The notes below the pieces were generated by a model. That model was not told the origin of the DNA, ran no database searches, and saw only the letters and a program-made list of their open reading frames with translations. Positions 9,138 through 32,130 of a stretch of 64,000 nucleotides of DNA are shown piece after piece. The DNA is taken from assembly GCA_030447245.1 (NCBI GenBank), contig JAUJPG010000011.1, positions 67,079 through 131,078 on the forward strand, in the 5' to 3' direction. The position numbers were made by a program, and so were the translations under genes. The stretch's first letter is position 1. Each line of letters begins with the position of its first letter. This DNA comes from Chloroflexota bacterium (GTDB taxonomy: Bacteria > Chloroflexota > UBA6077 > JACCZL01).

Positions 9138-10436
9138 TCAGGCGCCGGGCTCCGATAGGCGTGGCGGCTTGTCGTCCTTGACCGCCAGTACGAGAAGGTT
9201 CGCGACAAGAATCGTAGCGGCGATAAAGTAAAAGGTTACCTGCAGGCCGTAGGCGTCGGCGATCGCTCCCCCGGCGACCGGTGCGAGACCGCCCAGAAGC
9301 GACTGCGCCGCGAACAGGATGCCGATGCTCGTGCCGCCAAGCTCCGGCGGCGCGACCTCGAGGGCCCAGGCGTTAAGGACTGGCGTCATCGAATACAGGA
9401 AGAAGCCGACCAGCGCCAGTGCAAGGACGAAGAGCCACTCCACTCGCAGCGCCATCAGCGCCACCAGCATCACGCTGGTGCTGACCATCCCTACCGCGAT
9501 CATCGGACGGCGCCCGATCCGATCGGAGAGCCCGCCTGAGAGCGGGCCGGAGACGATGCCGGCGCCCTGGACGAGGGCGAGATAGGTCCCCACTAACAGC
9601 GGAGCCAGTCCGGCGACAGCGGTCAGGTAGATCGGCAGGAAGACCGACAAGCCGTTCTGGGCCATCGCCCGCGCGCCACCGAGCAGCGCAATCAGCAGCA
9701 TGTTCCGATTACCGAGCAGCGCCCGGAGGCCGCGCCCATAGGCTCGCACGTTCGGCCGCGTCTCGGCGCGTCGATCGCTGACCCGCACCCGGCGCATCAT
9801 CCGCCAGAAAATCAGCGCCATCAGTAGGCCCGGTACGACGTTGGCGATCGTGATCTCGCGCCAGGTCAACCAGGTGAGCGCGATCCCCACGGCGAATGGC
9901 GCGATCGTGTCGCCTACGCTTGCTCCAAGCGAGTGCATGGCCGTCGCGAACCCACGCCGCGTCGGGTACAGCTCAGATAGGCTCGAGAGCGCGGCGGGGT
10001 GATAGAGCAGGTTGCCAACCCCCACGATGGCCAGCAGAGACGCGATCAGGATGAAGTTCGTCGTCAGGCCGAGCAACAGATAGGGGATGCCGGCCCCGGC
10101 GATCGCCAGGCCCATGATCAGCGTAGGCCGGCCCACGATGTCGACGATCATCCCGCCGGGCAGGTTGACCAGGGTGCTCGTGACGCTCCGCAGGCCGATC
10201 AGCAGGCCCACCTGGGTGAGCGTCAAGCCGAGATCCTCGGCGAAGTAGGGTAGCAGGACCAAGAACGCGCCCGGGTACCAGTGCGTCATGGCGTGGCCGA
10301 CAGAGATCCCGATCATGGGCCCGTCGCCGCGTCCGATGCGCGGGAGCCAGCCGGCTCGCGCACGAGGCGCGGCCGAGGTACGTTGGCCGGGCGAGCCCGG
10401 CGGGTCGTTCGGCACCGTTCGCGCCGCGTCGCTCAC
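9138..10436 (-). CDS. MFS transporter
   Basis: 432 aa with 12 predicted TM helices and MFS-type loops. Start uncertain (alternative M at about 10316). Confidence 0.75.
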   Translation of the reverse strand: MSDAARTVPNDPPGSPGQRTSAAPRARAGWLPRIGRGDGPMIGISVGHAMTHWYPGAFLVLLPYFAEDLGLTLTQVGLLIGLRSVTSTLVNLPGGMIVDIVGRPTLIMGLAIAGAGIPYLLLGLTTNFILIASLLAIVGVGNLLYHPAALSSLSELYPTRRGFATAMHSLGASVGDTIAPFAVGIALTWLTWREITIANVVPGLLMALIFWRMMRRVRVSDRRAETRPNVRAYGRGLRALLGNRNMLLIALLGGARAMAQNGLSVFLPIYLTAVAGLAPLLVGTYLALVQGAGIVSGPLSGGLSDRIGRRPMIAVGMVSTSVMLVALMALRVEWLFVLALALVGFFLYSMTPVLNAWALEVAPPELGGTSIGILFAAQSLLGGLAPVAGGAIADAYGLQVTFYFIAATILVANLLVLAVKDDKPPRLSEPGA

Positions 10437-22038: not shown

Positions 22039-22392
22039 TCACTGTTGCACCCTCTCCTGCCGAATGTACGCAACCCAATCATGCTCACGCCCGCTGCGCC
22101 GAGCGTACCCTCGCGGTGCGCCCCGGTAAAAGAAAGGCCCGCCGCACTGGGCCTCCTGTGGGCCGAACCACGTCGCCTGCATTCCCCTGCAGCGGCCATT
22201 GGACTCACCAATCGCCATGCCGGTCAGCGGGCCGATCAAGAAGCCGATCACCCGGCCAACCGGGACGCCCCCGATCCCGGCGACGGCGCCGCCACCCAGC
22301 GCACCCACGACGTCGTCGCTCATCGCGCCGGCTGCCCCCGTGGTGGCCTCACGGCCAGCGAGCCCTCTGCGTGCCACATCGTCGCCTGCCAT
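22039..22392 (-). CDS. Hypothetical glycine-rich (glycine-zipper-like) small protein
   Basis: GALGGGAVAGIGGVPVGRVIGFLIGPLTGMAIG segment. Low confidence; it could be a non-coding GC-rich frame. Confidence 0.2.
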   Translation of the reverse strand: MAGDDVARRGLAGREATTGAAGAMSDDVVGALGGGAVAGIGGVPVGRVIGFLIGPLTGMAIGESNGRCRGMQATWFGPQEAQCGGPFFYRGAPRGYARRSGREHDWVAYIRQERVQQ

Positions 22393-23727
22393 CAGCGTCT
22401 CTCTGGATACGTGCAGTCATCCGGCCCCCGAGCGGGATTACCACGCCGAGAATCGCACTGATCGTGCCAGCTACGCAGGGCGGGGCGGGGTCTCATGGTA
22501 GAGCATCGGCACAATGTGGCTACCGTACCTCGTGCGCCGGTTGCCGCTGATTGTGGGCGCTTGCGCCTCCCGCGCTGCCGGCACTGGCGTGACGCTCCCG
22601 CCCGCGTGGTCGCGCCGGGGCGGGGATAGCGGGGGGTTGTGTTGCCGAGGTCGGCTGGTCGCTGGGAACGCTCGAGCAGACGTGGAAGTCGACCGCGGCC
22701 CACTCTCGTGGAAGCGCCGCTACGTTGACAGGGAAGGGCTGACCGGTCATGCTGACCGCAGACCGACGCCCGAGCCGTTTGGACGGCCGGCCACGCCCGC
22801 CTGGAGGGAAGCCATGCGGTACTACGAGGATGAGGCCCAAGAGGGTCAGACCTGGGAGGGCTGGGATGACGAGACCGGTGAGGGTAACCCAGCGCTCTCG
22901 GAAAACCTCCCGGAGCGTAGCGAGCCGCACGAGTAAGCCGGGGGTCGCAGCTCCAGCTGCCTCCGCTCGCCGATTCCGGTCGGTGTTTTTGCCGTGTCTG
23001 ACCGTCTAGGGAAGCGGTGATCCGCACCTGTGATCCGGGTGACGGAATTGTGACGCGAGCGGCCCACGGCCGGCCCAGGGCCTGTCTGCACAACATCGTT
23101 ACAATAGGATCGTGAACCGACATGAACTATCGGATACGCAATGAGAGGGACTGGGCACGCAACAGCGGCCGTCCCAACCCAGGCGCGGCCGGCCGAGCCA
23201 CGCCAGCCGTCGGCTAGTGCATGGGATGCTGTCGCGGCCAACCAAGGGTGCGCCATGGCGCACCCTTCCGTCGCGGTATGGCCCGTGGCTGACGGTGTAT
23301 AGCCGCTTCCGCCACCGGCGGTGGGCTGGTGTGTGGGAGCGCGTGCTGGCTGACCTCCAGGGTTGAGCCCAGCGACCAACTGGCGCTGCCGGCGCTGTGG
23401 AGACGAAGGCGGTCCGTCGATGTGGACCATGGGTCCGCCTGCGGCCGGACCGAATCGCGGGTGACACGGGGTACAACAGCGGGCCGTGCGGCGCTTTCTG
23501 CGGCGCCGCGGGATCAGTGCCGTTATCCTCCGCCGCCGCACCGAGCCACTGAATCACCTAGTTGGGTGATTCGCGCTCGCCGGCACTCCACGAGCGTCAA
23601 ACGATACGACCTCGAAGTTCTCCAGCTCTACCCGGGTTCTCACACCAACCGGGTTCTCACACCAAGACCACCGCCAATCCGGGGCGGCCCGTGACGCCGC
23701 GCTCGACCCTGCGCGTAAAGGACGTAC

Positions 23728-24903
23728 ATGATCGACTCGCCCTTCCAGAGCTTCTTCATGGGCGGCTTCGAGTGCTCCACTCACCGCCCGCGCTCCGGCA
23801 GACGGCTAGACCTGATTGCGGCAACCGGACATGACACGCATGCCCATGCCGACTACGCGCGGGCGGACGCACAGGGCATCCGCACCGTCCGCGATGGCAT
23901 CCGCTGGCATCTGATCGAGCGACGGGCCAACCGCTACGATTTCACCAGCGTGCTGCCGATGCTGCGCGCCGCTCGGACAGCGGGCGTGCAGGTAGTCTGG
24001 GATCTGTGCCATTACGGCTGGCCGGACGACATCGACATCTTCCGACCAGCATTCGTTGAGCGTTTCGCTCGCATGGTGCGCGCTTTCGCCGCCGTGTTGG
24101 CCGGCGAAACCGATACTGCCCCGGTTGTTGTGCCGGTGAATGAGATCTCGTTTTTCGCCTGGGCTGGGGGCGACACCAGATCGATCAACCCATTCAAACG
24201 GGGGCGCGGCAACGAGCTGAAGGCTCAGCTCATCCGCGCTGCAATCGCGGCGATCGAGGCGATCCGAGATGTCATTCCGGATGTCCGCGTGGCCTCCGCC
24301 GAACCGCTGATCCACGTCATCAACGATCCAACACGGCCGCACGAGGGCGCTGCCGCCGAGGCGTACCGACTGGCCCAGTACCAGGTGTGGGATATGCTCT
24401 GCGGGCGCGAGGCGCCGCACCTCGGCGGCGACATGAAGTATCTCGACCTGGTCGGCGTCAACTACTATCCCGACAACCAGTGGTATTTCGCCGGACCGAC
24501 GGTTGCACGGCCGCGGACGATTGACCGCGCGCACCGCGACTACCGCCCATTCCGACAGATGCTGCGCGAGGTCCACGACCGGTACGGCCGCCCGGTGTTC
24601 ATCGCCGAGACGGGGTGCGAGGACGGCGGGCGCGCCGAGTGGCTGCGCTTTGTCGGCCGCGAGGTGCGCGCCGCCATGCGAATGGGAGTGCCGATCACGG
24701 GACTATGCCTGTACCCGATCCTGGACTACCCCGGCTGGAATGATGACCGCCACTGCCACACTGGCCTCTGGGGCTACTGCGACGCTACAGGCACACGCGA
24801 CGTCTACCAACCGCTGGCACGAGAGGTGCGCCGCCAGCGCCAGTACGTGGCGCGGTTACGATCGGAGGCCGCCAGGGACCAGTCGCTGCTGGAGGCGGTG
24901 TAA
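23728..24903 (+). CDS. Glycoside hydrolase, clan GH-A TIM-barrel (GH1-like beta-glycosidase-related)
   Basis: MIDSPFQSFFMGGFECSTH N-terminus, NEISFF (acid/base NE) and FIAETGCEDG (nucleophile ETG) motifs. Confidence 0.6.
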   Translation: MIDSPFQSFFMGGFECSTHRPRSGRRLDLIAATGHDTHAHADYARADAQGIRTVRDGIRWHLIERRANRYDFTSVLPMLRAARTAGVQVVWDLCHYGWPDDIDIFRPAFVERFARMVRAFAAVLAGETDTAPVVVPVNEISFFAWAGGDTRSINPFKRGRGNELKAQLIRAAIAAIEAIRDVIPDVRVASAEPLIHVINDPTRPHEGAAAEAYRLAQYQVWDMLCGREAPHLGGDMKYLDLVGVNYYPDNQWYFAGPTVARPRTIDRAHRDYRPFRQMLREVHDRYGRPVFIAETGCEDGGRAEWLRFVGREVRAAMRMGVPITGLCLYPILDYPGWNDDRHCHTGLWGYCDATGTRDVYQPLAREVRRQRQYVARLRSEAARDQSLLEAV

Positions 24904-25439
24904 CGCCGTGGAGGAGCCGTTATCTGCGCCTCGCCAGGGGCGAATGCGCCACCACTGCGCCGATGGTGCCGCCGAACCCATTTGCAGCCAGGCCGGAGTA
25001 CTGCAGCGACACCGGTGAGGTGATCGTCGCATGCTTGGCTCGGGAGGGGCGACATGGCTACTGAGCGTGCGCAAGCGGGGTCGGTGAGTCGTGGCGACCA
25101 GTCGGTGAGTGACGGGCTTGGATGCGCTGCATGGTCGCACCGCCCCACGGCTTCGGTCGCGCCGAGGGTCGGGCATGCGTCCGGCGCTCCCGGGCGGGCC
25201 TGCGCGGGGCGATCATGCGCTGGAACGGCTGGCCGGTGGGGGTGCTCCCGGATGCGCGGGTCGCGGGGGGGGTGCGGGTGGGGGCTCGATGCGGTCTAGG
25301 AAACGCGGAGGCGGGCCGCGATGACCCACGGACGTACGTGGTCGAGTACCTCCGGCACGCGCGCAGGCTCTTGGTCGTGAATGAGATCGGCGTACGCCCT
25401 GTGTCTCGCGGTCGCGCAAACCACCGGGCCAGGCCATGT

Positions 25440-25477
25440 CATCTGTTGGCGGCCGCTTCTGGAGCGATGGTCAGATT
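25440..25477. repeat. attL-like direct repeat (38 bp) matching the 3' end of tRNA-Thr plus 20 bp of flank
   Basis: catctgttggcggccgcttctggagc(-)gatggtcagatt is identical, apart from one 1-nt indel, to 31588..31626. Confidence 0.75.
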
Positions 25478-25651
25478 TGCCTGAGTGCCATCCGCGGGCA
25501 TCCGTCAGTGTCCTCCGCCATTTGGTCGCTGAGTGCTTCCGTCCGCCCGCGTCCGCCGTCCACTGCTACAGTCCGCCTGGGTTGCTACATGCGCTGCTAC
25601 ATGCGGGCACTCAGCCGAGCGTCCGCTACGGTCATTGGTCACGAGGATGCC

Positions 25652-25972
25652 ATGCGGATCGCGGCCCTCGTACTCGGGGTGGTAGGCGCTGTCTTCGGTC
25701 TGATCGCGGCGGTGCTGGCCCTTGGGATTGGCGGCGTAGGCTCGGCGTTCAATGCACAGCGAGCCGGTACGGTGGTCAACCTGGGGTTGGGCGCGATCGG
25801 GTTCGCCGTGCTGGGGCTTATCGGCGGGAGCGTGGCGATCGCAAAACCCCGGGCGGCCGCGGCGCTGCTGTCGATCGCGGCCGACCAGCGCACGGCGGCC
25901 CGGCGATGGCTGTTCGACCTCTTCCCTGCCCTGCTGATCTGGACCGGCCTGTTCACGATCGTCGCCCGTTAG
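25652..25972 (+). CDS. Small membrane protein (106 aa, 3 TM helices)
   Basis: ATG at 25652 after GAGGA; MRIAALVLGVVGAVFGLIAAVLALGIGG... Confidence 0.4.
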   Translation: MRIAALVLGVVGAVFGLIAAVLALGIGGVGSAFNAQRAGTVVNLGLGAIGFAVLGLIGGSVAIAKPRAAAALLSIAADQRTAARRWLFDLFPALLIWTGLFTIVAR

Positions 25973-26071
25973 CGGTTGCTGAGGCTACCGGCGAGTGATG
26001 GTAGTGCTTCTACTCAAGCGGTCTGCCAGCGCGGCTACCATGGGGGTGGAAGGCACGTGACGGGGGCGGCG

Positions 26072-26257
26072 ATGACTCGATGGGTCGCAACGCTGTTCGA
26101 TCGGTGGTGTAGCCTGGTGGCTTGGGCCGGCGCGCTCGGAGCGTGCGTCTGGGGCGTCTGGCAGGTCGGCCGGGCTGATCCCGCGGGGTTTACGCTGCTG
26201 TTCCTCGGATCTGTCATGCTGGTGCTGCTGGTGGGCTACCGCCGCCAAAAGACCTAG
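26072..26257 (+). CDS. Small membrane protein (61 aa, 2 TM helices)
   Basis: MTRWVATLFDRWCSLVAWAGALGACVWGVWQV...FLGSVMLVLLVGYRRQKT. Confidence 0.35.
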   Translation: MTRWVATLFDRWCSLVAWAGALGACVWGVWQVGRADPAGFTLLFLGSVMLVLLVGYRRQKT

Positions 26258-26620
26258 GGTGTTCGCCAGCAAGCGGGATGGGAGAGCTTTCGGCCATGAG
26301 CTCTGGCACGCCGCTCGGCAGGAAGTAAGGAGGCGCGCTTCAGCGGCCCTCCGTGATCCTGGCAGCCCGAGCAGTTGTTGAGGCTGTTGGTTGATCCCCA
26401 CTGCACGCTGGTACGGGTGACCGTGCCGGACGGGTCATTCTCGATGCCCCTGTTCATAGCTCGCGACCTCACGTCATCTCGCAACACCGTCCGCTCCGCG
26501 CAAGTTTTGCCGCGCGAGGTGCATCTTAGGTGGAGTAGGGATGCAGTGGGCGCCCACTGCCTGACCCCCAGGAGGACGTTAGAACGGGTGGGGAGACCGC
26601 CCCGAAGGGATAGGCAAGAC

Positions 26621-27223
26621 ATGAAGCAGTGGAGAACTCGACCGGCCGCGGCTGCTCTCGCCGCGGCGTTAGCGCTTGCGTCGCCAGCGGCACCGCTGGC
26701 CCTTGGCCACCACGACGACGCTGTACCCGCGGAGCTGAGCTCCTGGGCCGCCCTCGACGTCGGCCCGGCCGCCTCGGAGGGGGCGGCGTGGCACCACCAG
26801 GGCAGGGGCCGTGGGGGCCCTGGCGCTCAGCGGGACGACGATAAGCGGGATGACGACGAGGTCACCGCGCGGGACCGGGGCCCAGCCGGCGGCCATGGGC
26901 GGGGCCTCGGCCGAGGCCGCGACGTCCAGGACGACGACGAGGTCAGCGGGCAAGGTCAGGGCCGAGGCCGGGGCCTCGCCGGTGGGCCCGCTCGCGGTAC
27001 GGGCGGCGGTGCCACCCGGGGCCGAGACCACCGCGAAGAGGCCCACGAGGGCGACCGCGATTGCTCACCGCCGTGGCAGAACCACGGCCACTACGTGAAC
27101 TGCGTCGCCCGCGGAGAAGTCGAGGTGGACGGCGAGAGCGTGGACGAGGTCGATAACCCGGGCAGCGTCGTCCGCGAGGCCGCCCAGAGCGATGTGGGCA
27201 AGTCCGACGGCGATGGCGACTAG
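26621..27223 (+). CDS. Secreted low-complexity protein (RG/acidic repeats)
   Basis: Signal peptide MKQWRTRPAAAALAAALALASPAAPLA, then HH, RGRG and DDDE repeats, then a C-terminal HGHYVNCVARGEVEVDG segment. Confidence 0.45.
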   Translation: MKQWRTRPAAAALAAALALASPAAPLALGHHDDAVPAELSSWAALDVGPAASEGAAWHHQGRGRGGPGAQRDDDKRDDDEVTARDRGPAGGHGRGLGRGRDVQDDDEVSGQGQGRGRGLAGGPARGTGGGATRGRDHREEAHEGDRDCSPPWQNHGHYVNCVARGEVEVDGESVDEVDNPGSVVREAAQSDVGKSDGDGD

Positions 27224-27512
27224 AGGGGCGCGGACGTCCCGCTCGCGCACCTGTCGAGACGGCACCATACACGGGGATGGAGCAGCTGCCCCACCCCCCT
27301 CTGCGTGCTCGGGATCACGGAGGAAGGCGTCGCGTACTGCCCAGCGACACGCCGCAAAGCCGGAGCTCCCGAGGATGAGCACGGGACTTCAGCGCATCGC
27401 CGCCCCGCCAGGCGAACCCGAGAGGGCGGCTGTTCGCCCAGAGCCGGGCACCAGCCGTACTTGGGTGAAGCGACCGATGTCCGGCGGGGCGGTGTGGTCT
27501 GGACGAGCGCCG

Positions 27513-27608
27513 CTAGAGGATACCGGCCATCCGCAGGATGACGACGGAGATGATGATCGCGACGACTAAGCCGACGATGCCGTAGGGGCCGCCAGGCGTG
27601 TTTCGCAT
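27513..27608 (-). CDS. 31-aa hydrophobic peptide (toxin-like small membrane protein)
   Basis: Strong RBS CAGGAGG 6 nt before the ATG. Product is MRNTPGGPYGIVGLVVAIIISVVILRMAGIL. It is not in the ORF track because it is shorter than 60 aa. Confidence 0.3.
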   Translation of the reverse strand: MRNTPGGPYGIVGLVVAIIISVVILRMAGIL

Positions 27609-27749
27609 GTGGACCTCCTGTGCTCGCCCCGGCGTGGCTGATCCGCCCGGCCGCGTCAAGTGCGCACGCCTGCTTGGCGTTCAGCGCTGACCACGAATGG
27701 AGGCCGGGCTTCGATGTCCGGTGGGGCAGTCTAGCCGACCGCGCTCCTG

Positions 27750-28039
27750 TCAGGCTTGCGCGATGACCTCGTACTCCTCGACGCTCTGGACGGTCGCGCC
27801 GAAGGCCTGGGTGGACTGGGTGCGGGACTGTTCCACCGCCGCCGCGCTGGCGCGTAGGGCCTCCTCGCTCTCCCAGAGGGCCACCGCTATCACCTTGCCG
27901 GATTGGCGGTCGGCCATCCAGTACGCGTCCTTGAAGCCACGCATCTGGCGGATGGCCGGAATGACCTTCTCCTGGATCATGCGCGCGGCTTCGTCGAGAC
28001 TGTCCGGCGGGCCTTGCACGGTAGTCACGCGAGCGAACA
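27750..28039 (-). CDS. ABM-domain (antibiotic biosynthesis monooxygenase / Dabb) protein
   Basis: RBS GGGAGG; MFARVTTVQGPPDSLDEAARMIQEKVIPAIRQMRGFKDAYWMADRQSGKVIAVALWESEEA, the ferredoxin-like ABM fold signature. Confidence 0.65.
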
Positions 28040-28129
28040 TCGTCGCACCTCCCTGGCTGCTCCCGGCGATGCGGGGCGAACCTAGCAGACCATGCCGGGC
28101 GCCTCCTGTCAAGGCGCGAGTGTAGTTAG

Positions 28130-29575
28130 CCAGCAAGAATGTCCGCTTGGTGCGCCAGCAAGAATGGGGAGGCGGGCAGATGCGGTTCACAGCAGCGATG
28201 GTTGGACGGCGCAGTTATGTGGTGGTCGAGCTGGTTCGGGAGGGGCTGCTGAGCCAAGGGGAGGCGGCGGCGGAGCTGGCCTGTCGGCGCGCCAGGTCCG
28301 TCGATTGCGCGCCGGGCTGGAGGGGGTCGGCGGGGAGGCGGGGGCGTTGGGCTATCAGCGGCGGCATCAGCGCCGAATCGGCTAGGCGCGGAGGTGTGGC
28401 GGCGGCGCGGGCGGTCCAGGCGGCGCACCCGCGCTGGAGCGCGCAAGCGATCTGGGAAGAGCTGGAGGCCGCGGGCAGGAGCCGCTGCCGAGCCTGCGCA
28501 CGCTCAGCCGCTGGCTGGGCCTGTGGCGGGCCGGGCCCGGGGACGCCCGGGGCCGCGGCCGGGCGCGGCGGTTCGAGGCCGCGGGGCCGCTGGAGCTGGT
28601 CCAGATGGACACCACCAGCGGGCAGTGGCTCGCAGGCCGTCGGATGGCCTACGTGATCGCTGCTGGACGACTACTCGCGGGCGATCCTGGCCGCCCGGGG
28701 CGGTCACGGCCGACTCGAGCTGGCAGAACCTGCGGGTGCTGGAGCAAGGCGTGGGCGGTACGGGCCGCCGCGGGTGCTGTACAGCGACAACGGCTCGATC
28801 TTCCGCACCACGCGCCACGGCGGCAGCCGCTTCTTCGTCTATCGTCCCGAGGTGCTGGCCGCGAGGCGCCGACCCAGCTGGCGCGCGCGCTCGGCGAGCT
28901 GGGCGCGGTGCTGCTGACCCACACCCCCGGGCAACGCCCGCGCCAAGGCAAGCTGGAGCGCTGAACCGCTTCTTCCAAGAGCGGGTGCTCGCCGACGGGC
29001 CCTACCCGAGCGTCGCGGCGCTCGACGCCGCCCTGCAGGCCTGGGTCGCCCACTACAACGCCCGCCATCGCCACCGCCGGACTGCCTGCGTCCCGGCGGC
29101 ACGCCTGGCTGGGCACGTCCGCCGCCCACTGCCGCCGGGACCCGCCCGCTCGGCGACGTGTGCGCCCTGCGCGAGACCCGCAAGGTCGCCAAGGACCACA
29201 CCATCTCGCTCGACGGCGTGACCTATGGCCTGCCCCGCGAGCCAAACCTGGTCGCCTACACGGTCGAGCTGCGGATCCGACCGCCAGAGCGTCCGCGTCT
29301 GGCACGCCGACCGCTTCGTCGCCGAGCTGCCACACGACGCGCCCGCGCCCCGGGACGGCCTCAGCGTCGACGACCTGCTCGGTCGCATCCTGCCCCAGCT
29401 GAGCCCAAGCAACCCCGCCGCAGGGGCGCCACCGGCGGCTCGCGGCCGCCGCCCAGGTGGGGCCCGTCCAGCAGGACGAACGAGCTTTGAAGGAGGGAGG
29501 TAAGGACCGCCGTTTCCCCGAGCGGAGCGGACATTCTACCTGGCGTAAGAATGCGGACATTCTACGTGGCGTACT
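28130..29575. mobile_element. Degenerate IS element (rve/DDE integrase-core transposase, IS481-like) with imperfect terminal inverted repeats
   Basis: Left end gccagcaagaatgtccgc (28137..) versus the reverse complement of the right end, gccaggtagaatgtccgc (29527..29547). Both ends carry tandem subterminal repeats. Interior encodes rve motifs. Confidence 0.6.
28147..29490 (+). pseudogene. Transposase (DDE/rve integrase core), multiply frameshifted
   Basis: LVQMDTTSGQWLAGRRMAYVIAA / DDYSRAILAARGG / LYSDNGSIF / RFFQERVLADGPYPSVAALDAALQAWVAHYNARHRHRRT / DHTISLDGVTYGLPRE are spread over all three forward frames. Confidence 0.6.
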
Positions 29576-29950
29576 ACAGGCGGGAGTCGATGGTAGAGAT
29601 TTCGATCATCAGCCCTAGCGTTGTGGGCGGCGTCGAGGGCTGGCAGTGGGAGTATCGTGAAAGGTACCGGCCCTGCGCCATGGCGGGGCCGAGACGGCCA
29701 GAAGGGTGAGCCATGTGCGCGGTCGTACGGCGACGCCCCAAGTGAGGTCAACGCGACCTGTCCGGATGACACGGGGGACACCAACCGAACGGGGGCGACG
29801 ACCTGCCGCACAGACTTGTCTGATGAACACCGGGCGTGACCCTTCTGACGAGGACGGGCAGAGGGAGAGAGTCATGGAGCTACTGGCACGGACCGTTATC
29901 GAGCCCGTGCGAGATAGCGCTGCTGTGCGGTGGTGAAGGGAGACAGAAGG

Positions 29951-30220
29951 ATGGCTATTGGCGTGATCTTCGAGGGCCAGATTACCCAGGCGCAGTACGA
30001 CCAGGTCGGCAACGAGGTCGCTCCAGGCAATTCCCCGCCGTCAGGCATGCTGTACCGCGCGGGCGGACCGAGCGAGAACGGCTGGTGCGTCATCGAAGTC
30101 TGGGAATCGAAGGAAGCGGCCCAGCAGTTCTTCGACGCGAAGCTCGGCCAGGCGCTGCAGAAGGCCCAGATCTTGGTGCAGCCGAAGTTCTTCGAGGTCG
30201 TGAACATCATGAAGCCCTGA
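29951..30220 (+). CDS. Small alpha+beta barrel protein (ABM/Dabb-like), 89 aa
   Basis: RBS AGAAGGA then ATG at 29951. MAIGVIFEGQITQAQYDQV...WCVIEVWESKEAAQQFFDAKL. Confidence 0.45.
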   Translation: MAIGVIFEGQITQAQYDQVGNEVAPGNSPPSGMLYRAGGPSENGWCVIEVWESKEAAQQFFDAKLGQALQKAQILVQPKFFEVVNIMKP

Positions 30221-30315
30221 ACAACAGGGCACACAGCAGGCTGAGGATGGGGAGGCAATGCCTCTCCATCCCCCGTCCGGTGCGCGTGCCGCTGCGGGGT
30301 CGACCAGTGGAAGAG

Positions 30316-30516
30316 ATGTTCGTCCGATCCATCCTCGCTCTGCTCGTCGCCCTCACCGGAGCGCTTGGTGCTCCAGGCCAGGCAGCCGCCCAGCCCATCG
30401 ACGTCCACCCCGCCCTCGCGCCCGCATGGCACGCACTCACGACCCTCCGCACCGCCGACGGCCAGGACATCGGCTCGTACTTCGCGCTGATTGCCGAGGC
30501 GACGGGGTCTGCCTGA
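30316..30516 (+). CDS. Small secreted protein (66 aa) with signal peptide
   Basis: MFVRSILALLVALTGALGAPGQAAAQP...; low confidence. Confidence 0.25.
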   Translation: MFVRSILALLVALTGALGAPGQAAAQPIDVHPALAPAWHALTTLRTADGQDIGSYFALIAEATGSA

Positions 30517-31140
30517 CCGTTGCCCTACTCCCCGATAGAGCAGAGGCCGGCTTCGACCCGCGCGGCCAGCAAATAATTGTCAACCATGACCTGCTCGGCG
30601 CGGACCGGACGGCGCGGGCGGCGGTGGTGGGCCGTGCTGTGCGGCGTCTTAGGACGAGACGCCGCACTCCGATTGTGGCTGGAGAGGATCGGGCAGTGAG
30701 GCGAATGGCAGGGCCCTGGCAGAACTGCGGGCACTCTCGAATGAGGATCTGGGCGCCGAGCATGATGAGGTCGCACGCGGCACGCAGACGAACGTCAACT
30801 ACTATCTTGCGGAGCTCACTCGGCGCGATCAGGATCGGCAGACAAGGATCGTCGTTTGGTGCACGGTTGCCACCGCAATCATGACTCTGGTTATGACTAT
30901 GGCGACGATCGAGCTGTACATGAGGGGCTGAGTCCGGGCGGCTCCGCCTCCCGCCACGCCCCGTCGGGCTAGAGTTAGCGCCTGAGGCGCGCCACCCAAA
31001 TCCGGCCCGTCTACAACGACCCAGGCTGCAATGGCGGGGCAATACGGCCGGGCGGAGGGCGGCCGCTGTGCGCGCCGGCTTGCGGAGCCCCCGCGGCCGG
31101 CCTAGATTGGGCGCGATGCCCACCCGCCTCACCCTCGACG

Positions 31141-31443
31141 ACCTGGCCGCAATCGCAGGCGCTCCATCACACGCGACCCCTGCGCAGTTGGCCCGCCAGC
31201 TCAGCAAACCGGCGACCCTAGTAGGCCGGCCCGGTGTTCCCGAGCCGACTTGGCGGGCCGCTAGGCGAGAATCACGCCTTGGTCACCTGGCACCGCGCGC
31301 TCAAGGCCGCCGACCTTCCGAGGATTCGGATGCACGACCTCTGTCACACCAAGGGCACCCTGATGATCGACGAGGACGAGGAGCCGGTGGTCGTCCAGCG
31401 GACGCTGGGGCATGCCCAGCAGTCGGTCACCGCCGACCTCTAG
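31141..31443 (+). pseudogene. Tyrosine recombinase/phage integrase, C-terminal remnant only
   Basis: ...VFPSRLGGPLGENHALVTWHRALKAADLPRIRMHDLCHTKGTLMIDEDEEPVVVQRTLGHAQQSVTADL* carries the HxxR box and LGH box, but the final Tyr box is lost and the upstream frame is broken by stops. Confidence 0.6.
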
Positions 31444-31587
31444 GTGGGCAAGGTTCCGAACGCTCTCAAGAAGGCTGCCGAACGCCACGGCGAGCTGCTC
31501 GACCCTGACACCGCAGCAACCCGGTAGGTGCTGACGACGGCGTTGCTACATTCGCAGCTACAGAACGGACAAGAATCCCTGACACCC

Positions 31588-31626
31588 CATCTGTTGGCGG
31601 CCGCTTCTGGAGCCGATGGTCAGATT
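31588..31626. repeat. attR-like direct repeat (overlaps the 3' 19 nt of tRNA-Thr)
   Basis: Matches 25440..25477. Confidence 0.75.
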
Positions 31627-31682
31627 CGAACTGACGGCCTGCCGCTTACGAGGAGGCTGCTCTACCCCTGAGCTACATCGGC
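31608..31682 (-). tRNA. tRNA-Thr (anticodon CGT)
   Basis: Reverse complement folds as a cloverleaf: acceptor GCCGATG/CATCGGC, D-arm GCTC-AGGGGTA-GAGC, anticodon loop CTCGTAA, T-arm GTCAG-TTCGAAT-CTGAC, CCA encoded. There is one U-C mismatch in the anticodon stem. Confidence 0.8.
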
Positions 31683-31885
31683 AGCGTACGGGACGGTGAA
31701 CTGGTCGCCACCCAGCGAAAGCATACCAACAGCGCCGTGACGCAGGCCAGTCGCGCACAAGGGCTCTCACCGGGCTCGGCGCCGGCCCGAGAACGAGCGC
31801 TCGGCTACGATGGTCGCCTGGGGGGCCGGCTGCTGACGTTGAGAGATGGAACGTTGGTGTGACCGAGGGGTATGAGGAGGAGCCG

Positions 31886-32130
31886 ATGCTGCGCTACACG
31901 GTGCTGCTGTACCCGCGCGAGGAGCGCGAGGACTACGTCCTTGTACCATCGCTCCCAGACTACCTGACAGAAGGAGATACGGTCGAGGAGGCTCGGGCGA
32001 TGGCCCGTGATGCCATCTAAGGGTACGTCGAAGTACTCCGCGAGCGAGGCGTGGAGGTTCCAGTCGAGGATCGACCTCCCAGCGTCTCGGCGGTGGAAGT
32101 GGCGGCGTCCCGAGCGATGTCGGCGTAGTC
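31886..32130 (+). pseudogene. HicB-family antitoxin with in-frame TAA at codon 45
   Basis: RBS GAGGAGG. MLRYTVLLYPREEREDYVLVPSLPDYLTEGDTVEEARAMARDAI*GYVEVLRERGVEVPVEDRPPSVSAVEVAAS is a good match to HicB/UPF0150 on both sides of the stop. Confidence 0.55.

Follow-up and report, generated by a model that had tools for sequence, protein, structure and literature searches.

A fixed, shrunken remnant of an integrative element, either prophage-like or some other integrase-borne island, very probably occupies positions 25440-31626 of the 64-kb stretch of Chloroflexota DNA analysed here (the window, to which all window-wide counts refer). The element appears to have inserted at the 3' end of a tRNA-Thr(CGU) gene. 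An earlier note, made from the letters of the window, had described the interval as a tRNA-targeted island with attachment (att) sites in an attL/attR arrangement. That description is borne out by an intact tRNA gene, a displaced fragment of its 3' end, an integrase remnant between the two, homologues of this integrase beside tRNA-Thr(CGU) genes elsewhere, and a short motif that recurs inside both ends of the interval. The motif is evidence beyond what the earlier note saw.

Three tRNA genes were called in the window by ARAGORN and checked with Rfam. One of them, tRNA-Thr(cgt) at 31608-31682 on the minus strand, is intact (Rfam tRNA score 62 bits) and is the proposed target of integration. The tRNA-proximal copy of the direct repeat (31588-31626, plus strand) overlaps its 3' 19 nt. 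Nucleotides 31608-31626 comprise the tRNA 3' end, from the last three T-loop bases through CCA, and 31588-31607 are 20 nt of downstream flank, exactly the division given in the earlier note. The distal copy (25440-25477, plus strand) consists of a displaced 18-nt tRNA-Thr 3' fragment, with one base deleted in its acceptor-stem part, and 20 nt of flank. It sits downstream of the minus-strand tRNA, that is, at lower coordinates, and in the same orientation. Positions 25440-25465 equal 31588-31613 (26 nt, exact) and 25466-25477 equal 31615-31626 (12 nt, exact); between these blocks the left copy lacks one C of GAGCCGATGG. Identity thus extends over 38 of 39 positions and the likeness ends abruptly at either side. 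Even when three mismatches are allowed, the window contains exactly two copies of the 26-mer and exactly two of the 20-nt flank part, and no third tRNA-Thr 3' fragment was found there at that tolerance. None of 100 dinucleotide-preserving shuffles matched the repeat parts at up to three mismatches. The duplication of a 39-bp segment with a 1-nt deletion, as first noticed, is therefore a correct observation far beyond chance. Measured between the outer edges of the repeats, the interval is 6187 bp long. The open reading frames (ORFs) that overlap 25440-25477 have no Pfam match except for a downstream DUF4064-like part. The base missing from the distal copy (25466 versus 31613-31614) is one G of the GG in the acceptor stem and precedes the discriminator by 2-3 nt. 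Small deletions at this place are reported to recur in displaced fragments, and for certain islands the damage is described as lying "3 bp upstream of the discriminator" (Islander, PMC4383910); the likeness of the window's one-base deletion to such damage is a resemblance only.

Just inside the tRNA-proximal repeat lies what is left of a tyrosine integrase gene, a pseudogene comprising the last ~97 codons (31228-31527, plus strand), as delimited by Pfam, alignment and tblastn. Its 3' end is ~60 bp from the repeat and convergent with the tRNA. The ORF 31234-31443 matches Pfam Phage_integrase (E=2.4e-7) at profile positions 97-162 of 172 and is directly preceded by two in-frame stops, in agreement with the C-terminal remnant and upstream stops that had been read from the sequence before. 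A protein search with the conceptual translation yielded 30 relatives. When 29 homologues are aligned with the remnant, the motif TADLYVGKVP proves nearly invariant; where it has its tyrosine, the window has a TAG codon (31441-31443). Reading past this TAG, the homology continues to the normal stop of the family at 31525-31527. A second lesion affects the arginine of HxxR, in place of which a TGT (Cys) codon is found at 31342-31344, such that the window reads HDLCH where most relatives read HDLRH. Six relatives served as tblastn queries, including a 401-aa protein reconstructed from the related locus L083. With the latter, only residues ~290-386 matched, at 31228-31521. None of the six queries revealed a trace of the first ~290 residues in any frame upstream of 31228, nor a second integrase of the same family in the window. 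The place of the missing 5' ~870 bp is taken by a stretch without coding-type codon bias (30517-31227), in which there is no ORF with a high GC content at third codon positions (GC3) and in which tblastn found nothing. Having lost its 5' part and suffered two lesions in the catalytic site, the remnant, as translated, cannot encode an active recombinase.

The same arrangement recurs among the relatives of this integrase, whose loci (n=20) were assembled from context look-ups and a metagenome scan. Of the relatives that have a tRNA nearby, the four closest (L082, L087, L088 and L092) each lie ~90-100 bp from a tRNA-Thr(cgt) gene and are convergent with it, as in the window. Relatives at 50-60% identity display the same geometry beside tRNA-Leu(tag/cag/caa). 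In the loci compared, subgroups of the integrase family accordingly track tRNA-Thr(CGU) and tRNA-Leu targets. Full-length integrase genes of ~400 aa are present in L089, L090, L091, L096 and L098; the full-length relatives carry the Phage_int_SAM_3 and Phage_integrase domains and belong to phrog_1. Truncated remnants like that of the window occur also in L082, L095 and L100. The survival of the 3' end fits a simple selective filter, since deletions that reach into the end next to the tRNA would harm the gene that integration had restored. A distal att site was sought by k-mer search or blastn-short over ~10 kb per locus and was not found in L082, L083, L089, L090, L098 or L102, where the elements are either larger or truncated by the limit of the locus. 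In L090, Pfam searches of ten ORFs gave an HNH endonuclease only. In L082, from a Chloroflexota metagenome-assembled genome, the sequence in frame ahead of the 5'-truncated integrase fragment (9850-10000) looks, by eye, like the N terminus of an IS701-type transposase, a hint that this integrase was truncated by a separate event at nearly the point where that of the window was. The integrase of L083 (9164-10372), beside tRNA-Leu(cag), is full-length and split over three frames on a contig rich in very short ORFs; the frame breaks could be long-read assembly errors or mark a real pseudogene.

The two ends of the interval are linked by a motif that is typical of this family. In related loci the integrase gene is followed by a pair of direct repeats that recur at 12-bp spacing, usually as YTGCTAAC-N4-YTGCTAAC (12-13 loci). 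The units of a pair vary in concert, with TTGGAACG occurring twice in L092 and GCTACA twice in the window. The window variant, TTGCTACATNCGCNGCTACA (18 specified bases), has two copies in the 64 kb, even at three mismatches, against 0.02 expected. One copy starts at 31543, 26 bp inside the right repeat; the other starts at 25582, inward of the left repeat by ~100 bp. The heptamer TGCTACA, searched on either strand, occurs four times in the window, each time at one of the two island ends. On the right, TTGCTACATTCGCAGCTACA (31543-31562, plus strand) contains two 12-bp-spaced repeats at a position homologous to the YTGCTAAC pair of the relatives and provides candidate P-arm sites. On the left, three TGCTACA repeats (25564, 25583 and 25595, within 25564-25601, plus strand) are candidate P'-arm sites, the block 25582-25601 reading TTGCTACATGCGCTGCTACA. 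The repeats of the window are all on one strand. When the ends are joined through one copy of the att repeat, an attP of ~216 bp is rebuilt that has repeats on both arms. The family-typical repeated motif inside both island ends links these to one former attP, and the copies of TTGCTACATNCGCNGCTACA are probably its arm-type integrase sites. We infer integrase binding at these sites from their position, spacing and concerted variation.

The junction next to the tRNA has a structure of its own. In the relatives the tRNA is followed by a strong, terminator-like GC hairpin and a T-run, with fold z-scores of -2.8 to -6.5 in five of six relatives. The hairpins were judged by individual folds, the stems being out of register in the alignment. 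Compared were L082 (10380-10425), L087, L088, L092, L083, L090, L093, L096 and L099 with window positions 31563-31607. The loop, GACCAGATAGG, is kept across elements that target tRNA-Thr and tRNA-Leu, and the stem sequence varies between loci. The window retains only the 3' half of the hairpin (GGGTGTCAGGGATTCTTGT). In place of the 5' half stands GAAGCGGCCGCCAA, the very stretch that is common to the distal repeat copy, and the att repeat has its outer edge (CAGATG) within the conserved loop. The junction next to the tRNA is chimeric, its 5' half being identical to the distal copy and its 3' half of the family type. Either the strand exchange or recognition site of the family is situated in the loop, or a later gene conversion between the repeat copies extended from the tRNA part to the loop. 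It is conceivable, and in our judgement rather unlikely, that in this probably Chloroflexota-associated integrase family the element supplied both the tRNA 3' end and the terminator-like hairpin, that strand exchange or recognition took place in the loop, outside the tRNA, and that the remnant is perhaps excisable in trans. An att architecture of this kind, with the exchange placed in a hairpin loop on the downstream side of the tRNA, would, if true, be unusual. The attP layout of the family consists of the 12-bp-spaced repeat pair, then the hairpin with the conserved loop, and then the tRNA end.

The cargo between the two ends is without evident special function. Protein families were assigned by Pfam, NCBIfam and PHROGs. 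Nearest to the distal repeat is a 106-aa multi-pass membrane protein (25652-25972, plus strand), which is DUF4064-like (Pfam E=3e-4, below the cut-off) and matches phrog_6780 over its full length (E=2e-14). An ORF of 61 aa (26072-26257, plus strand) with two hydrophobic stretches and a weak coding signal is, to judge by its translation, a putative small membrane protein; Pfam and PHROGs scans gave no family match. Small membrane proteins are thus present in the interval as previously listed, and so is a protein of 200 aa (26621-27223, plus strand; GC3 0.80) that contains RG/Asp-rich repeats, begins with a signal-peptide-like sequence and has a small conserved domain at its C terminus. This protein is nearly an orphan: a search of 1.84 billion representatives gave 9 relatives at E<=1e-3, of which one is 74% identical and the rest share only the ~55-aa C-terminal domain (residues ~144-198, CSPPWQNHGHYVNCVA...). 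Two ABM-barrel proteins had also been proposed. For the first (96 aa, 27750-28040, minus strand), membership in the ABM family of dimeric alpha+beta barrels is supported by Pfam (E=4e-6, 27.2 bits versus a cut-off of 23.1). The second (89 aa, 29951-30220, plus strand) has no significant Pfam match and belongs to a conserved small family without a Pfam model, the homologues of which are 55-88% identical, all 89-90 aa long, and located in unrelated genomic contexts. Its predicted fold is ferredoxin-like and of the ABM type (AlphaFold pLDDT 89.7), the best Foldseek matches being ABM-family structures (4dn9, TM 0.69). Because an hhalign comparison of the two proteins was not significant (probability 10%), the assignment of the second rests on the predicted fold. 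The last cargo ORF (66 aa, 30316-30516, plus strand), an uncertain gene, has a signal-peptide-like N terminus in translation and gave no family match in Pfam and PHROGs scans. Beyond it, a reading frame at 30653-30931 (plus strand) ends in a hydrophobic tail, IVVWCTVATAIMTLVMTMATIELY; it encodes <50 aa from its first start, has no family match and may be one of the "tiny membrane proteins" of the earlier note. The word "decayed" used there applies to the integrase, with its 5' ~290 codons lost and its Arg->Cys and Tyr->stop changes, and to the frameshifted insertion sequence (IS) described below, but is overstated for the cargo ORFs, several of which look intact and have full-length homologues.

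The internal IS (28121-29578, plus strand), likewise suspected before to be decayed, was recognised by its inverted repeats and by a frameshifted pseudogene of a DDE (rve) transposase that runs over three frames. The terminal inverted repeats are 26 bp long (28121-28146 and 29553-29578) and 81% complementary. The flanking sequences GGCGCGAG and GGCGGGAG are alike at 7 of 8 positions and possibly represent an 8-bp target duplication. Transposase signatures of rve_3 (E=6e-5) and Mu-transpos_C_2 (E=1e-3) appear in different frames, both below the curated cut-offs. With inverted repeats of 26 bp that start with TGT, a possible 8-bp duplication and rve_3/Mu-C signatures, the element resembles DDE (rve) insertion sequences of the IS481/ISNCY type. 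It differs from them in a transposase spread over at least three frames and in a right inverted repeat that is doubled in tandem (29527-29547 and 29553-29573, 95% identity).

The outer flanks of the interval contain ordinary chromosomal genes, among them genes for a peptide ABC transporter, a metallo-beta-lactamase (MBL) hydrolase and a two-component system. To the left, two gene-poor stretches (22100-23700 and 24900-25440) have no ORF with coding-type GC3, no Pfam match and atypical tetranucleotides; they may be older decayed DNA. Between them, 23728-24903 encodes a 391-aa glycoside hydrolase (GH)-like protein with weak GH1/GH35 NCBIfam matches and no Pfam match. Among 185,579 species genomes, the most similar relatives reach ~60% (<=61%) identity and are patchily distributed, coming from Microcoleus (Cyanobacteria), Chloroflexota, Acidobacteriota and Pseudomonas. 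On the other side of the tRNA, a 53-aa ORF at 31859-32020 resembles the N terminus of the HicB antitoxin (Pfam E=1.4e-3, below the cut-off). It sits in the 760-bp gap between tRNA-Thr and a zinc-finger gene and may be another gene remnant. Pfam searches of the ORFs of 22.0-25.3 kb and 31.8-32.8 kb revealed nothing credible.

Several observations weigh against the interpretation of 25440-31626 as the remnant of one tRNA-targeted element. The GC content of the interval (0.690) barely differs from that of the flanks (0.678). The direct repeat runs 20 nt past the end of the tRNA, more than restoration of the tRNA needs, and the 26-mer has no exact match in viral or metagenome contig collections. 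The proximal junction lacks the strong hairpin found in the relatives, and none of the cargo genes recur in other integrase-bearing loci. The gene order of L081, which holds the nearest sampled relative of the flanking aminotransferase (only 77% identical), is the same from 36.07 kb down to the zinc-finger gene (32.4 kb), then diverges, and includes no tRNA. Pfam, NCBIfam and PHROGs found no excisionase, replication, transfer or phage structural genes among the island ORFs. In particular, no island ORF matched Rep, FtsK/Tra or relaxase families in Pfam or NCBIfam, and a PHROGs scan of the cargo for phage structural, packaging and lysis genes gave only phrog_6780, the function of which is unassigned in PHROGs. 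A blastn search of the whole island against plasmid and phage collections had no match. Since such genes and matches are missing and no distal att site was found within ~10 kb in the relatives, the 6.2-kb interval is probably much smaller than the original element. Composition is an ambiguous witness. The tetranucleotide distance of the interval from the rest of the window is 0.166 versus 0.114 ± 0.011 (maximum 0.149) for same-size segments, a deviation of 4.7 standard deviations. In this k-mer comparison, a check proposed in the earlier note, the anomaly does not stop at the repeat. It reaches left to ~22 kb, taking in 22-25 kb, and owes part of its size to low coding density and to the IS, so that non-coding DNA and the IS act as confounding factors.

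The leftward extent of the anomaly, together with the scarcity of coding-type ORFs as far as ~22 kb, would be explained if the locus were composite, formed by tandem integrations at the same tRNA or by a larger island (~22-31.6 kb), with the repeat at 25440 belonging to the latest occupant only. The GH-like gene, whose relatives at only ~60% identity come from unrelated phyla, would fit this scenario, and the 20-nt flank in both repeat copies could stem from an earlier occupant of the same family. Arguing against it are the absence from the window of a further tRNA-Thr 3' fragment at three mismatches, of a second integrase remnant and of a further copy of the arm motif, as well as the lack of domain matches in the ORFs of 22.0-25.3 kb. 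A composite locus is therefore possible, if on balance unlikely. A different objection is that the repeats are not an att pair at all and arose by chance or by local duplication, through slippage or an IS-mediated rearrangement, the integrase fragment being an unrelated relic. No empty site was seen, given that the nearest sampled relative is 77% identical and synteny ends before the tRNA, and a plain duplication would also pass the tRNA end into the flank. Yet the shuffles did not reproduce the repeat, integrases of the family lie beside tRNA-Thr(CGU) in four other loci with the same geometry, and an independent motif pair brackets the interval inside both repeats. The IS, for its part, is 2.6 kb and 2.0 kb away from the two repeats and has inverted repeats of its own. 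Based on the shuffles, the tRNA-Thr-linked relatives and the motif pair, we consider this explanation effectively refuted.

It may also be asked whether the remnant is dead or is a non-autonomous element that a related full-length integrase can still mobilise in trans. The core repeats are identical at 38 of 39 positions, candidate arm sites are kept at both ends, several cargo ORFs look intact, and related full-length integrases exist in the environment. However, the window contains no second integrase of the family and the island no excisionase gene, the one-base deletion lies within the core of the distal copy, and both the decay of the IS and the disappearance of most of the element suggest that it has long resided there without being selected for mobility. 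Mobilisation in trans is in our view very unlikely, and the interval is better regarded as an immobile remnant of the element inserted at tRNA-Thr(CGU).

The following history of this remnant is proposed. Through site-specific recombination, the element would have entered the chromosomal tRNA-Thr(CGU) gene at its 3' end. The attP of the element presumably included the same tRNA 3' end, starting in the T loop, and adjacent sequence, so that integration would have regenerated a whole tRNA and moved the original 3' end 6.1 kb downstream. The enzyme is likely to have been a heterobivalent phage-type tyrosine integrase that probably bound the TGCTACA repeats inside both ends, which would correspond to the P and P' arms that attP once had. 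Later the element would have been inactivated by deletion of the first ~290 integrase codons and probably of most of its genes. The surviving integrase fragment would have acquired the Arg->Cys change in HxxR and the Tyr->stop change, and an IS would have inserted and then decayed by frameshifts. We infer the order of these events, as well as the function of the arm sites, the position of the crossover and the present immobility.

Lambda-type heterobivalent tyrosine integrases bind arm-type sites in attP. The full-length relatives of the window integrase are similar to them in their size of ~400 aa, their N-terminal extension and their SAM-like core-binding and catalytic domains, and the reconstructed attP of the window is similar in having short direct repeats at both sides of the core. 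Differences are that neither Xis nor IHF sites were identified in the window and that the repeats are all in one orientation. In the actinomycete elements pSAM2 and SLP1 and in the ssrA/tRNA islands of Dehalococcoides, the integrase gene ends near attP and reads towards the tRNA, and the tRNA 3' end is included in the identity segment, which may reach past it. Their hosts are high-GC bacteria or Chloroflexi, and decayed and tandem remnants are common. In contrast to elements of the pSAM2/SLP1 type, no rep or tra/FtsK genes were found in the window island.

The arrangement also conforms to the signature by which Islander recognises islands (Hudson, Lau & Williams 2015, PMC4383910; Williams 2002, cited there), namely a 3' tRNA fragment located downstream and oriented like the tRNA itself. 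As in the islands in tRNA genes described there, the window has an intact tRNA with such a fragment and, inside the interval, what is left of a tyrosine integrase gene. Its interval of 6187 bp is within the range of 2-200 kb, the fragment overlaps no conserved domain, and the identity block starts in the T-loop/T-acceptor junction, one of three known crossover sublocations (PMC4383910). It differs in that only a C-terminal pseudogene of the integrase is present, which suffices to show ancestry but falls short of the intact gene that Islander expects, and in that the shared block extends 20 nt past the tRNA; the host belongs to a poorly sampled high-GC lineage, for which the source names of homologues likewise point to Chloroflexota. 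Because its integrase is a pseudogene, the window island is not "putatively active" in the Islander sense.

The island of the window is thus of a well-known kind, real but ordinary; it has little importance beyond annotation and holds nothing surprising for a specialist. For annotation, it accounts for two features, a pseudo-tRNA fragment and a short "integrase" ORF, which automatic procedures would otherwise report as genes. The attP layout could help to map islands in Chloroflexota-type metagenome bins, and the family offers candidate att/integrase pairs for genome engineering. For the organism itself, the finding means that 6.2 kb of a poorly sampled, high-GC genome would be horizontally acquired DNA that has become fixed.

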